Shown: positions 48,651-54,552 of the stretch, piece after piece | Numbering within the stretch: the first letter of the stretch is position 1 | Layout: the number at the start of each line of letters is the position of its first letter | Assembly: GCF_013167455.1 (NCBI RefSeq) | Contig: NZ_CP038328.1 | DNA: 64,000 nt | Reading direction: 5' to 3' (one strand) | From: Escherichia coli O157:H7 | Lineage (GTDB): Bacteria > Pseudomonadota > Gammaproteobacteria > Enterobacterales > Enterobacteriaceae | The notes under the pieces: generated by a model | Databases searched by the model: none | What the model was told of the DNA's origin: nothing | What the model saw: only the letters and a program-made list of their open reading frames with translations | Position numbers and translations under genes: made by a program

Positions 48651-49514
48651 ATGCGTTGGCAAGGGCGACGTGAAAGTGACAATGTTGAAGACAGGCGCAA
48701 TAGCTCCGGCGGTCCGTCAATGGGCGGTCCCGGTTTCCGTCTGCCGAGCGGTAAAGGCGGGCTGATTTTACTGATAGTCGTGCTGGTTGCAGGCTACTAT
48801 GGCGTTGATTTAACCGGGTTGATGACCGGGCAGCCGGTTTCTCAACAGCAATCAACGCGGTCAATTAGCCCAAATGAAGACGAAGCCGCAAAATTCACCT
48901 CGGTGATTCTGGCAACCACGGAAGACACCTGGGGACAACAGTTCGAGAAGATGGGTAAGACCTATCAGCAACCGAAGCTGGTCATGTACCGTGGAATGAC
49001 GCGTACCGGATGCGGGGCGGGCCAGTCCATAATGGGGCCGTTCTATTGCCCGGCGGATGGTACGGTTTATATCGATCTCTCCTTCTATGATGACATGAAA
49101 GACAAACTTGGCGCGGATGGCGATTTTGCCCAGGGGTACGTTATCGCCCATGAAGTCGGTCATCATGTGCAGAAACTGTTAGGCATCGAGCCGAAAGTTC
49201 GTCAACTGCAACAAAACGCGACGCAGGCGGAAGTGAACCGCTTATCTGTGCGTATGGAACTCCAGGCCGACTGTTTTGCCGGTGTCTGGGGGCATAGCAT
49301 GCAGCAGCAAGGCGTTCTGGAAACCGGCGATCTGGAAGAGGCGCTGAACGCGGCGCAGGCCATCGGCGATGACCGTTTACAACAGCAAAGTCAGGGGCGA
49401 GTAGTACCAGACAGTTTCACTCATGGCACTTCTCAGCAACGCTACAGCTGGTTTAAACGTGGTTTCGACAGCGGCGATCCGGCACAATGCAATACTTTTG
49501 GTAAAAGCATTTAA
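48651..49514 (+). CDS. ypfJ: YpfJ, predicted membrane-anchored zinc metallopeptidase (HExxH), function unknown
   Basis: Track ORF 287 aa; HEVGH at 49149-49163; N-terminal TM segment. Confidence 0.85.
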
Positions 49515-49528
49515 CTTCCGGGGCAGGG

Positions 49529-51544
49529 ATGGCTGAACTGACTGCGCTTCACACATTAACAGCGCAAATGAAACGTGAAGGGATCCGCCGCTTGCTGGTG
49601 TTGAGCGGGGAAGAGGGTTGGTGTTTTGATCATGCGCTTAAGTTACGTGATGCCTTACCTGGCGACTGGCTGTGGATTTCGCCGCAGCCAGATGCTGAAA
49701 ACCACTGTTCTCCCTCGGCACTACAAACTTTACTTGGGCGCGAGTTCCGGCATGCGGTATTCGACGCCCGCCACGGCTTTGATGCCGCTGCCTTTGCCGC
49801 ACTTAGCGGAACGTTGAAAGCGGGAAGCTGGCTGGTTTTGTTACTCCCTGTATGGGAAGAGTGGGAAAACCAACCTGATGCCGACTCGCTGCGCTGGAGT
49901 GATTGCCCTGACCCTATTGCGACGCCGCATTTTGTCCAGCATTTCAAACGCGTACTTACGGCGGATAACGACGCTATCTTCTGGCGGCAAAACCAGCCGT
50001 TCTCGTTGGCGCATTTTACTCCCCGTACTGACTGGCACCCCGCGACCGGCGCACCACAACCAGAACAACAGCAAATCTTACAGCAGCTACTGACCATGCC
50101 GTCGGGCGTGGCAGCGGTAACTGCTGCGCGTGGGCGCGGTAAATCGGCGCTGGCAGGGCAACTCATTTCTCGTATTGCGGGTAGTGCGATTATCACTGCG
50201 CCCGCAAAAGCGGCAACGGATGTACTGGCACAATTTGCGGGCGAGAAGTTTCGCTTTATTGCGCCTGATGCCTTGTTAGCCAGCGATGAGCAAGCCGACT
50301 GGCTGGTGGTCGATGAAGCCGCAGCCATACCTGCGCCGTTGTTGCATCAACTGGTATCGCGTTTTCCTCGAACGTTGTTAACCACTACGGTGCAGGGCTA
50401 CGAAGGTACCGGACGTGGTTTTTTGCTGAAATTTTGCGCTCGCTTTCCGCATTTACACCGTTTTGAACTGCAACAGCCGATCCGCTGGGCACAGGGATGC
50501 CCGCTGGAAAAAATGGTTAGTGAGGCACTGGTTTTTAACGATGAAAACTTCACCCATACACCACAAGGCAATATCGTCATTTCCGCATTTGAACAAACGT
50601 TATGGCGAAGCGAGCCAGAAACGCCGTTAAAGGTTTATCAGTTATTGTCTGGTGCGCACTACCGGACTTCGCCGCTGGATTTACGCCGCATGATGGATGC
50701 ACCAGGGCAACATTTTTTACAGGCGGCTGGCGAAAACGAGATTGCCGGAGCGCTGTGGCTGGTGGATGAGGGGGGATTATCTCAAGAACTCAGTCAGGCG
50801 GTATGGGCAGGTTTTCGTCGCCCGCGGGGTAATCTGGTGGCCCAGTCGCTGGCGGCGCACGGCAGCAATCCACTGGCGGCGACATTGCGTGGACGGCGGG
50901 TCAGCCGGATAGCAGTTCATCCGGCGCGTCAGCGCGAAGGCGTTGGGCAACAGCTCATTGCCAGCGCTTTGCAATATAGGCCTGGCCTCGACTATCTTTC
51001 GGTGAGTTTTGGTTACACCGGGGAGTTATGGCGTTTCTGGCAACGCTGCGGTTTTGTGCTGGTGCGAATGGGTAATCATCGTGAAGCCAGCAGCGGTTGC
51101 TATACGGCGATGGCGCTGTTACCGATGAGTGATGCGGGTAAACAGCTGGCTGAACGTGAGCATTACCGTTTACGTCGCGATGCGCAAGCTCTCGCGCAGT
51201 GGAATGGCGAAACACTCCCTGTTGATCCACTAAACAATGCCGTCCTTTCTGACGACGACTGGCTTGAACTGGCCGGTTTTGCTTTCGCTCATCGTCCGCT
51301 ATTAACATCGTTAGGTTGCTTATTGCGTCTGCTACAAACCAGTGAACTGGCATTACCGGCGCTGCGTGGGCGTTTACAGAAAAACGTCAGCGACGCGCAG
51401 TTATGTACCACACTTAAACTTTCAGGCCGCAAGATGTTACTGGTCCGTCAGCGGGAAGAGGCCGCACAGGCGCTGTTCGCACTTAATGATGTTCGCACTG
51501 AGCGTCTGCGCGATCGCATAACGCAATGGCAATTTTTTCACTGA
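49529..51544 (+). CDS. tmcA: tRNA(Met) cytidine acetyltransferase
   Basis: Track ORF 671 aa; helicase-like ATPase plus GNAT domain; 15-nt gap after ypfJ. Confidence 0.9.
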   Translation: MAELTALHTLTAQMKREGIRRLLVLSGEEGWCFDHALKLRDALPGDWLWISPQPDAENHCSPSALQTLLGREFRHAVFDARHGFDAAAFAALSGTLKAGSWLVLLLPVWEEWENQPDADSLRWSDCPDPIATPHFVQHFKRVLTADNDAIFWRQNQPFSLAHFTPRTDWHPATGAPQPEQQQILQQLLTMPSGVAAVTAARGRGKSALAGQLISRIAGSAIITAPAKAATDVLAQFAGEKFRFIAPDALLASDEQADWLVVDEAAAIPAPLLHQLVSRFPRTLLTTTVQGYEGTGRGFLLKFCARFPHLHRFELQQPIRWAQGCPLEKMVSEALVFNDENFTHTPQGNIVISAFEQTLWRSEPETPLKVYQLLSGAHYRTSPLDLRRMMDAPGQHFLQAAGENEIAGALWLVDEGGLSQELSQAVWAGFRRPRGNLVAQSLAAHGSNPLAATLRGRRVSRIAVHPARQREGVGQQLIASALQYRPGLDYLSVSFGYTGELWRFWQRCGFVLVRMGNHREASSGCYTAMALLPMSDAGKQLAEREHYRLRRDAQALAQWNGETLPVDPLNNAVLSDDDWLELAGFAFAHRPLLTSLGCLLRLLQTSELALPALRGRLQKNVSDAQLCTTLKLSGRKMLLVRQREEAAQALFALNDVRTERLRDRITQWQFFH

Positions 51545-51617
51545 CTCCTTCAATTTTCTCCCATGGTCATTGTGAGTCAGCGGCGTAAAATTAATGACAT
51601 CAGTTAAGGAGTTCGCC

Positions 51618-52316
51618 ATGAAACATGACCATTTTGTTGTTCAAAGCCCGGATAAACCTGCGCAACAGTTGTTACTGCTTTTCCACGGTGTCGGGGATAA
51701 CCCGGTGGCAATGGGGGAAATAGGTAGCTGGTTTGCACCGTTGTTCCCGGATGCGCTGGTGGTGAGTGTCGGTGGCGCGGAGCCGAGCGGTAATCCGGCG
51801 GGGCGTCAGTGGTTTTCGGTGCAGGGTATTACGGAAGATAATCGCCAGGCGCGTGTGGATGCCATCATGCCGACGTTTATTGAAACGGTGCGCTACTGGC
51901 AGAAACAGAGCGGAGTAGGGGCTAACGCCACGGCGCTAATCGGTTTCTCTCAAGGCGCGATTATGGCGCTGGAGAGCATTAAAGCCGAACCGGGCCTTGC
52001 TTCACGCGTCATTGCTTTTAACGGACGCTATGCGAGCCTGCCGGAAACCGCGTCTACAGCCACGACAATTCACTTGATTCATGGCGGTGAAGATCCGGTT
52101 ATCGATCTGGCGCATGCAGTTGCGGCGCAGGAAGCGTTAATCAGTGCCGGTGGTGACGTGACGCTGGATATCGTGGAGGATTTAGGCCATGCGATCGACA
52201 ATCGCAGTATGCAATTTGCCCTGGATCACTTGCGTTATACCATTCCGAAACATTATTTCGACGAAGCGCTAAGCGGCGGTAAGCCTGGCGATGATGATGT
52301 GATTGAAATGATGTAA
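51618..52316 (+). CDS. ypfH: esterase YpfH (alpha/beta hydrolase)
   Basis: Track ORF starts at 51594; ATG 51618 preceded by AAGGAG gives MKHDHFVVQSP; GFSQG nucleophile elbow. Confidence 0.9.
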   Translation: MKHDHFVVQSPDKPAQQLLLLFHGVGDNPVAMGEIGSWFAPLFPDALVVSVGGAEPSGNPAGRQWFSVQGITEDNRQARVDAIMPTFIETVRYWQKQSGVGANATALIGFSQGAIMALESIKAEPGLASRVIAFNGRYASLPETASTATTIHLIHGGEDPVIDLAHAVAAQEALISAGGDVTLDIVEDLGHAIDNRSMQFALDHLRYTIPKHYFDEALSGGKPGDDDVIEMM

Positions 52317-52321
52317 TAATA

Positions 52322-52389
52322 GCCGGGTAGGCCTGATAAGACCGTATCAGGCATCATGGCCGGATGCGGCGTTAACGCCTTATCCGGCC
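52322..52389. repeat. REP element between convergent ypfH and ypfN
   Basis: gccgggtaggcctgataagacc…ggccggatgcggcgttaacgccttatccggcc. Confidence 0.7.
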
Positions 52390-52396
52390 ACTTAGC

Positions 52397-52597
52397 TTAC
52401 TTCTTCGGTTGATCCTTTTTCGGCCAGTCGTCGTCATCGTCCCACTTATCGTTGAAATCACGATGCGGGGGAAGCTCCGGCTTGTTGGCGAGAAATTTCT
52501 TATGGTCGACGCGCTTGAGATCTTTAATCACGTTCAGCAGGACGCCTACCAAAAAGACAATCACCAGAATCCACCAATATTTAGCCAGCCAGTCCAT
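52397..52597 (-). CDS. ypfN: small membrane protein YpfN (UPF0370)
   Basis: Track ORF starts at 52621; internal ATG 52597 gives [22 protein letters not shown]; acidic/basic tail. Confidence 0.75.
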
Positions 52598-52624
52598 GCT
52601 TATTTCCTCTTGCAGAACCACTCA

Positions 52625-53752
52625 TCACGCGACGAGCTGTTCCATGATACGTTGATACATACGGGCAAGTAGCTGCAGGTCGGCAGCGTTCACACATTCA
52701 TTAATTTTATGAATAGTGGCATTGACCGGCCCGAGTTCCACCACCTGCGCCCCCATGCGGGCAATAAAGCGCCCGTCGGACGTTCCGCCTGTGGTCAGTA
52801 GCTGCGGTTTAATTTCATTATAGTGCTCAACCGCGTTAACGACCGCATCCACCAGTTTACCGCGCGCGGTCAAAAATGGCTGCCCGGAAAGCCACCAATC
52901 CACCGTATAGCGCAGTTGATGTTTTTCAAGCAGGGCAAGCACCTGCGCTTTGATCATCTCATCAGTCAGTTCGGTGCTGAAGCGGAAGTTAAACTGCACA
53001 AACAGTTCACCCGGAATAACGTTGTTACTGCCCGTTCCCGCCTGAATATTGGCAATCTGCATACTGGTCGCCGGGAAGAATTCATTGCCCTGATCCCACT
53101 CAATAGCCACTAATTCATTAAGGAAAGGTGCTGCGCGATGTACCGGATTGTCAGCCAGATGTGGGTAGGCAACATGCCCCTGAACGCCATGAATGGTTAG
53201 GTTGCAGGTTAACGATCCACGACGACCATTTTTCACCACATCACCTACCACTTCGATACTCGACGGTTCGCCGACCAGGCAGTAATCGAGACGCTCATTA
53301 CGTGCCATTAACGCTTCGACGGCTTTTACCGTACCATTGTGGGCACTGGCTTCTTCATCAGAGGTGATCAGAAATGCCAGTCGCCCTGTATGGTTGGGAT
53401 GTTGTGCGACAAAACGTTCTGCAGCTACCACCATCGCCGCCAGCGAGCCTTTCATATCTGCCGCACCGCGCCCGAATAACATGCCGTCACGAATGGTTGG
53501 TTCAAACGGCGGATTGATCCAACGATCGGCGTCGCCAGGCGGCACCACGTCGGTATGCCCGGCAAAGGCCAATGTTTCACCTTGCCCACGCCATGCCCAA
53601 AAATTCTGCGTATCGGCAAAGTCCATGCGTTCAACGGTAAAACCGATCGCCTGCAAACGTTCAATCAACAAAGCCTGGCATCCTGCGTCATCAGGACTCA
53701 GGGAAGGGCGGCGAATAAGCTGTTGTGTCAGCTCAATAACCGGGCACGACAT
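52625..53752 (-). CDS. dapE: succinyl-diaminopimelate desuccinylase
   Basis: Track ORF 375 aa; M20 peptidase family. Confidence 0.95.
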
Positions 53753-53755
53753 AGA

Positions 53756-54130
<375 letters not shown>

Positions 54131-54492
54131 TTATGAGAATAAATACTCATTTAAGAGTGAAAACATTTTGCCTGCAAATGATTATCAGGAAATATAACAT
54201 TATCGAAGTATTCAAATTAACAGCTATTAAATAATATTAAACATTTTTAACGTAAACATTAAGAATATTCATCTTGTTATCTGTCTGTATTTTAACCAGA
54301 ATTAAATCAGTATTAGATGCCGTATGAATATCTCGAAATGTTGCTGTGTATCACATACAAATCATCACTGCAGGACCATAGTATTTACATAAGGTTTGTC
54401 CCCCGGAGGTAGTCATCGCAGCAATCGAGTAAATTAGCTTCACCACGGTATATTGTTTCCGTAGAATACCCATAATTATAAGAGAGGTTGTT

Positions 54493-54552
54493 ATGATTGA
54501 ACGTGAACTGGGGAACTGGAAAGACTTTATTGAAGTTATGCTTCGTAAGTAA
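54493..54552 (+). CDS. ypfM: 19-aa small protein YpfM
   Basis: ATG 54493 preceded by AGAGAGG SD, encodes MIERELGNWKDFIEVMLRK, TAA at 54550-54552; not in ORF track (below length cutoff); recognised from small-protein literature. Confidence 0.6.
   Translation: MIERELGNWKDFIEVMLRK

Follow-up and report, generated by a model that had tools for sequence, protein, structure and literature searches.

The window, a stretch of 64,000 nucleotides from contig NZ_CP038328.1 of Escherichia coli O157:H7 (GCF_013167455.1), carries the gene ypfJ on the plus strand, directly upstream of tmcA. In the open reading frame list of the window, ypfJ runs from an ATG at 48651 to a TAA stop at 49514 and encodes 287 amino acids, as the first-pass annotation had described. 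The following features were placed at the gene and its borders:

48499..48525, + strand: perfect, GC-rich 12-bp hairpin without a U tract, 16 nt past the purC stop and present in the centroid fold
48624..48629, + strand: perfect TATAAT hexamer without a good -35 hexamer, 22 nt before the start codon of ypfJ (sequence reading only)
48642..48645, + strand: Shine-Dalgarno-like GAGG, 5 nt before the ypfJ ATG (sequence reading)
48651..49514, + strand: ypfJ coding sequence, with full-length PF04228 and NF050010 matches and named ypfJ in RefSeq E. coli genomes
49515..49528, + strand: 14-nt ypfJ-tmcA spacer, cttccggggcaggg (sequence reading)
49529..51544, + strand: tmcA, the downstream neighbour, encoding a tRNA(Met) cytidine acetyltransferase of 671 aa with the Pfam domains TmcA_N, NAT10/TmcA helicase, GNAT and tRNA_bind_3

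The start codon is further backed by a conserved N-terminal motif, which begins at M1 in homologues of many phyla. Among complete E. coli genomes, the 4.7 kb around ypfJ were 100% identical to those of O157-type strains, and the ypfJ region was found in 5425 of 5426 genomes, with the annotated order purC-ypfJ-tmcA-ypfH.

Upstream of the gene, the promoter and terminator scan found no promoter above threshold in the purC-ypfJ spacer; the TATAAT hexamer stayed below this threshold and the hairpin received no terminator call, while a terminator was found after bamC at 47564-47585. Judged by sequence, the hairpin between purC and ypfJ might terminate transcription in part or stabilise the RNA, and the hexamer could serve as a weak ypfJ-specific promoter. 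In an Rfam scan of 44000-54500, ypfJ carried no RNA element and all matches were to REP-type naRNA4. These matches lay at 47673-47717 (bamC-purC) and 52330-52389 (ypfH-ypfN) and scored 58.9 and 30.9 bits, respectively, below the gathering score of 59.5.

Upon comparison with Pfam, the check proposed in the first-pass annotation, YpfJ matched PF04228 ("putative neutral zinc metallopeptidase") over profile positions 1-290 of 290 with 498.6 bits (E 8.2e-150, cut-off 23.2). It also matched the NCBIfam equivalog NF050010 (Zn_HExGHH_YpfJ / KPN_02809 family neutral zinc metallopeptidase) with 380.2 bits against a cut-off of 250, and the HExGHH motif of this family is present as HEVGHH at residues 167-172. 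Given these scores and the near-universal presence in E. coli, the reading frame is no chance feature, and E. coli ypfJ is a true member of PF04228/NF050010 and, by motif and fold, a gluzincin. The earlier description as a metallopeptidase-like protein of unknown function holds for the zinc-peptidase domain and understates the rest: the orthologue is a one-zinc protease in vitro (PMC3269727). The identification of ypfJ is correct, already known and ordinary, in a family that has been named and curated.

The family is very large: clustered at 50% identity, it has 10385 clusters with E <= 1e-3 and, with the stricter E <= 1e-30, 1415. In a one-genome-per-species scan, members were found in Proteobacteria, Cyanobacteria, Bacteroidota, Planctomycetota, Nitrospirota, Campylobacterota and others, and homologues were also present in Actinomycetota and on Enterococcus plasmids. 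One such Enterococcus faecium plasmid (L085 1501-2394) carries a full-length homologue with the N-terminal motif and the hydrophobic helix described below, beside an IS6 transposase; this homologue is without the second cysteine pair (Y208/G280), and the plasmids are conjugative. In Nonomuraea gerenzanensis, 11 separate places on one replicon (NZ_LT559118.1) matched YpfJ, which suggests a large expansion of paralogues in some Actinomycetota.

The features of the catalytic domain were located as follows:

48870..49511, + strand: catalytic gluzincin domain, residues 74-287
49149..49166, + strand: HEVGHH, residues 167-172, conserved and on helix 158-176, with the proposed zinc ligands H167 and H171 and the proposed general base E168
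49257..49271, + strand: E203-L-Q-A-D207 (ExxxD), conserved and on helix 192-219, with the proposed third zinc ligand E203 and the supporting D207
49422..49442, + strand: H258 to R264 (THGTSQQR), near-invariant, proposed transition-state stabilisers
49011..49049, + strand: C121 (49011-49013) and C133 (49047-49049), a proposed disulfide around the invariant GPFYCP strand
49272..49490, + strand: C208 (49272-49274) and C280 (49488-49490), a proposed second disulfide

Direct reading of the codons CAT GAA GTC GGT CAT places HEVGH at 49149-49163, where the first-pass annotation had put it, followed by another His. Among 333 aligned homologues, H167, E168 and H171 were kept in all, H172 in 327, E203 and H258 in 328 each, and D207 and R264 in 329 each; G239-D240-D241 was at least 98% conserved. 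In the AlphaFold2 model, which was confident (pLDDT 87.7, pTM 0.85), a long helix at 74-100 backs the domain and residues 109-142 make up a small beta sheet; the active-site helix spans 158-176 and the helix after it 192-219. HEVGH on helix 158-176 and E203xxxD207 on helix 192-219 give the arrangement of gluzincins (clan MA(E)), in which a "glutamate helix" (ExxxD in the thermolysin and neprilysin types) follows the HExxH helix, the ligation itself being predicted. The fold is thermolysin-like and catalytic. The first-pass annotation had named loss of HExxH among orthologues, or a non-catalytic fold, as grounds against a peptidase; the motif was invariant in the homologues and the fold is a catalytic gluzincin one. 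It had also called for a structure prediction to find a third zinc ligand, and the model offers E203 by analogy with thermolysin, which has HExxH plus E166xxxD170. By the same analogy, H167, H171 and E203 are proposed as zinc ligands with E168 as general base, D207 and R264 may support the metal site, and H258 may stabilise the transition state, the H258/R264 roles being taken from the H711-x5-R717 spacing of neprilysin. These predicted assignments are drawn from conservation, secondary structure in the model and textbook gluzincin chemistry.

The four cysteines behaved as two pairs. C121 and C133 were Cys together in 332 homologues and Ser together in one. C208 and C280 were both Cys in 281 homologues and both replaced in about 42, with F/Y paired with G/A; only one Cys was kept in 8, of which 3 were gapped at the partner column. 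C208-C280 was also the top pair of the whole protein in the MI-APC analysis (0.43). We propose from these patterns that C121-C133 and C208-C280 form disulfides that would brace the catalytic domain.

N-terminal to the catalytic domain, three segments were distinguished:

48651..48701, + strand: conserved N-terminal motif, residues 1-17 (family consensus MRWxGRRxSxNVEDRRG), from alignment, model and coevolution
48702..48761, + strand: glycine-rich flexible linker, residues 18-37 (pLDDT 43-53)
48762..48806, + strand: hydrophobic helix, residues 38-52, predicted signal-anchor or transmembrane segment

The transmembrane segment noticed in the first-pass annotation was recovered as this helix, whose mean Kyte-Doolittle value over 17 residues was 2.34 in E. 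coli YpfJ, at least 1.6 in 98% of 287 homologues and 2.25 as the family mean. The preceding linker had a median length of 15 residues and about 50% Gly across 285 homologues. Within 15 residues on either side of the helix there were 2.2 K+R before vs 0.33 after, and the N-terminal tail averaged about 6 K+R. In the close homologues P0122, P0098 and P0135 the whole N-terminus was swapped for a lipobox or a signal peptide, and in P0128 (597 aa) a signal peptide and a long extra N-terminal region preceded the YpfJ catalytic domain; this extra region looked caspase-like by eye. Distant actinobacterial relatives had a layout of cytoplasmic tail, transmembrane segment and domain, with the same Cys pairs. 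Because of the charge asymmetry, the paired behaviour of the cysteines, the lipobox and signal-peptide variants and the actinobacterial layout, the catalytic domain of YpfJ appears to be extracytoplasmic, on the periplasmic side. Two special kinds of anchor, which might have eased the topology conflict described below, were rejected. A Tat signal anchor did not fit, as the conserved R15-R16 do not directly precede the helix, the median distance being 15 residues (range 3-55); nor did a SAR domain, as G+A+S+T made up a fraction of 0.36 of the helix across the family and 0.18 of the E. coli one and the helix was strongly hydrophobic.

What is known of the activity comes from KPN_02809 (YpfJ) of Klebsiella pneumoniae MGH 78578, an orthologue about 83% identical by tblastn, which shares the length class, HExGHH, the four cysteines, the N-terminal motif and the hydrophobic helix with E. 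coli YpfJ and shows no substantive difference from it. When cloned and purified in 2012, KPN_02809 hydrolysed casein and contained about 1.2 Zn per molecule; EDTA, 1,10-phenanthroline and DTT inhibited it and PMSF was without effect, while the H171S and E172D variants were inactive, with zinc reduced in H171S to about 0.4 vs 1.2 mol/mol (PMC3269727). The homology model in that study was built on an M48 template at 11% identity and gave neither a third ligand nor a topology (PMC3269727). Zinc-dependent peptidase activity is thus established for the K. pneumoniae orthologue only and is assigned to E. coli YpfJ by orthology, and what a recombinant protein derived from a GST fusion does to casein says little about its function in the cell. 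In Yersinia pestis, a ypfJ insertion had no effect on psaA regulation, the single assay tried. The literature searched gave no physiological substrate or phenotype for YpfJ, its other mentions of ypfJ being table entries, and a search on Rv2575, COG2321, b2475 and autoinhibition gave nothing useful on function or topology.

Among better-known peptidases, thermolysin (M4) and neprilysin, PepO and Zmp1 (M13) are only about 10% identical to YpfJ, which differs from them as a much smaller single domain (~215 aa), tethered to the membrane, with an invariant GPFYCP strand and a GDD motif of its own. The Pfam search of YpfJ gave no M4 or M13 match, Foldseek against the PDB gave nothing significant, and a PDB sequence search with the single YpfJ protein or the family profile gave nothing below E 0.3. 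Membership in M13 was rejected on the missing Pfam M13 match and on the single domain of a 287-aa protein, compared with a two-domain architecture of ~650 aa. Membership in M48 (BepA, HtpX, Ste24; PDB 3C37) was rejected as well, with no PF01435 match at E <= 0.01; M48 members are multi-pass or TPR-containing and without the N-terminal motif, so that the anchoring of YpfJ differs. ImmA/IrrE-type peptidases (M78), such as CapP of CBASS, showed a local likeness over the HExxH...E segment (PADLOC CapP, E 7e-4, residues 163-210), amounting to 17 bits over 48 residues only. An anti-phage defence protease of the CapP type was rejected on this purely local match, the housekeeping neighbours and the absence of partner genes around ypfJ. 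YpfJ lies outside M48, M13, M4 and M78, and the likeness is at the level of fold or local motif only. The elastinolytic lipoprotein FP0506 of Flavobacterium psychrophilum, a cell-surface gluzincin, was a remote HHpred relative of PF04228; it is a lipoprotein whereas YpfJ is signal-anchored. Such a relative speaks for proteolysis outside the cytoplasm as a role of the wider superfamily.

In the reading that we prefer, with a probability of about 0.8, ypfJ encodes an inner-membrane-anchored PF04228/NF050010 zinc endopeptidase with a periplasmic domain, and probably shares a transcript with tmcA without functional coupling to it. The signal-anchor helix 38-52 would insert in the inner membrane with the N-terminus in the cytoplasm and would tether a thermolysin/neprilysin-like gluzincin domain of ~215 residues on the periplasmic side. 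There, H167, H171 and E203 would hold the zinc and E168 would activate water, with D207, H258 and R264 supporting the metal site and the transition state and the two proposed disulfides bracing the domain. We infer a non-essential role in housekeeping or quality control, in which unfolded envelope proteins or peptides would be cleaved.

Apart from the limited weight of the casein assay and the lack of effect of the Y. pestis insertion, one body of evidence counts against this reading, since a single-pass helix with the N-terminus inside cannot accommodate it: the coevolution and docking of the N-terminal motif. The conservation of this motif across phyla nearly equals that of the active site, with S9 kept in 297 of 333 homologues, N11 in 284, D14 in 304 and R16 in 308. 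AlphaFold2 placed a beta strand at 12-15 and gave the motif pLDDT values of 98 and 89, each for a block of ten, against around 45-50 for the Gly-rich linker and the hydrophobic helix. The picture was repeated when a homologue with 46% identity and minimal linkers was modelled, the motif having pLDDT 90-98 in both models. In the MI-APC analysis, an independent one on 302 full-length sequences with an effective number of 194, the motif coevolved with residues 81, 85, 88, 91, 92, 111 and 138, through W3-V85 (0.33), E8-K81 (0.30), R7-A88, R7-D92, N11-E91, R15-V111 and E13-K138, and pairs between the motif and the domain made up 20 of the top 50 long-range couplings vs 4.6 expected. Their partners lie on one face of helix 74-100 (81, 85, 88 and 92) and on strand 109-115. 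For the docked N-terminal strand, the couplings lead to strand 109-115 and K138. Charges were swapped in step, with E:R/K or R/K:D/E at positions 8/81 in 58 clusters (70% identity) and like charges in 4, and with R:D at positions 7/92 in 103 clusters and E:K in 6, while a W3:V/T85 pairing alternated with L3-D5:K/R85. In five clearly motif-less variants the T90-E91-D92/A88/K138 signature was gone, except in P0098.

There is good evidence that the contact between the motif and the catalytic domain is real. It conflicts with a single-pass topology because a single transmembrane helix with the N-terminus inside puts the partners on opposite sides of the membrane; along the gene, the coevolving residues 1-17 (48651-48701) and 81-92 (48891-48926) are parted by the hydrophobic helix. 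The conflict might be met by an anchor that does not span the membrane, by transient docking, or by an artefact of phylogeny common to MI and AlphaFold. That the motif physically binds the extracytoplasmic domain, at the 81/85/88/92 helix face and strand 109-115, despite the N-in-biased helix in between, is a claim we put forward tentatively and hold to be somewhat less probable than its opposite. The actinobacterial relatives L081, L082 and L084 (Nocardia, Mycolicibacterium and Rhodococcus) are without the motif and have an extra Cys pair, which by eye appears to tie the segment after the transmembrane helix to the backing helix near the equivalent of residue 88, on the face contacted by the motif in YpfJ.

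The motif and the domain could share one side of the membrane permanently, with the motif as a fixed part of the catalytic domain and the helix either anchoring the protein monotopically or peripherally or mediating oligomerisation, or else with the whole enzyme on the cytoplasmic face and the Cys pairs acting as a redox switch. We regard this as unlikely, though it would accommodate the excess of couplings, the charge swaps at 8/81 and 7/92, the single helix face formed by the partners, the confident placing of the motif in both models and the loss of T90/E91/D92 in the five motif-less variants. The full-length Klebsiella GST fusion was more than 80% soluble and DTT inhibits the purified enzyme (PMC3269727), and overexpressed ypfJ was among the listed HOCl-resistance hits, all of which fit the same arrangement. 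The uniformly and strongly hydrophobic helix (Kyte-Doolittle 2.25) with its clear positive-inside asymmetry speaks against it, as do the lipoprotein and signal-peptide variants and the paired loss of cysteines, which favour an extracytoplasmic domain, and the mutual information may be inflated by phylogeny. We know of no insertion pathway by which a lone hydrophobic helix would end up with its two flanks both periplasmic. Less probable still is an arrangement in which the protein inserts with the N-terminus inside and the C-terminus outside and the motif docks only in another state, either before export or after exit from the bilayer as in SAR endolysins, switching activity or stability. Such a latch would reconcile the signs of coevolution and docking with those of N-in insertion, and it would suit the Gly-rich linker, which is flexible throughout the family; the helix, however, is un-SAR-like (G+A+S+T 36% family-wide but 18% in the E. 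coli protein, with strong hydrophobicity), the median of 15 residues between R15-R16 and the helix leaves no Tat signal, and the tail carries about 6 K+R on average.

A different question is whether the tight arrangement of ypfJ and tmcA reflects a common pathway of YpfJ and the tRNA acetyltransferase. The two genes lie on the same strand with a short spacer, in which the promoter and terminator scan found no terminator-like or promoter-like site, and so have the layout of an operon. The first-pass annotation had seen the tight linkage and suggested co-transcription; the linkage stands, with a spacer of 14 nt and not 15, which is the difference of the coordinates, and the two genes may plausibly be co-transcribed, but being specific to Enterobacteriaceae, the linkage gives no functional hint. 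A long-read study names a "dapA-ypfJ operon" (bioRxiv 10.1101/262964), and in E. coli ypfJ probably shares a transcript with tmcA, with additional read-through from dapA-bamC-purC. Among 80 loci of different species, tmcA followed ypfJ in 12, all of them from Enterobacterales, a count of adjacency at the ypfJ loci. Tight or overlapping spacing was confined to eight Enterobacteriaceae loci. A DUF441 (PF04284) gene lay between ypfJ and tmcA in Yersinia and Acerihabitans (L008 6986-7435 and L010 6836-7321), and Providencia (L009) had three small genes there, one of them DUF7677, and six genes between purC and ypfJ. In the same sample, Aeromonas, two Pasteurellaceae and every other phylum had no tmcA beside ypfJ, and the linkage was not kept across the distant taxa sampled. 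Outside Enterobacterales there was no conserved neighbour at all, the commonest Pfam family accounting for 5 of 128 flanking genes; large clusters from the all-vs-all comparison of neighbours were discarded as alternative-frame reading frames overlapping ypfJ itself. The linkage is a lineage-specific gene order and therefore gives no hint of a function shared with TmcA: it is a gene-order feature of Enterobacteriaceae and not a functional coupling. The same strand, the 14-nt spacer free of terminators and the eight tight or overlapping loci are all that a common pathway would explain, and the synteny, with its limited adjacency, inserted genes and unlinked lineages, largely refutes it. TmcA has its substrate, tRNA, in the cytoplasm, whereas the catalytic domain of YpfJ appears to lie outside it, and we consider a shared pathway the least probable of the alternatives to an anchored periplasmic endopeptidase.

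ypfJ is a core gene of E. coli that is still among the poorly characterised envelope genes, and its family, with more than 10000 clusters at 50% identity in many phyla, is without a solved structure or a known substrate. For those who study YpfJ, the analysis provides a map of the proposed catalytic residues and disulfides: H167, E168, H171, E203, D207, H258, R264, C121-C133 and C208-C280. The evidence for a contact of the N-terminal peptide conflicts with the textbook single-pass topology and is directly testable. If the contact holds, YpfJ-type proteases would be no plain single-pass type II proteins: either the helix of the functional protein would not span the membrane, or the N-terminal peptide would dock and undock in step with membrane insertion or release, and this second case would be a new regulatory principle for membrane-tethered bacterial metalloproteases.
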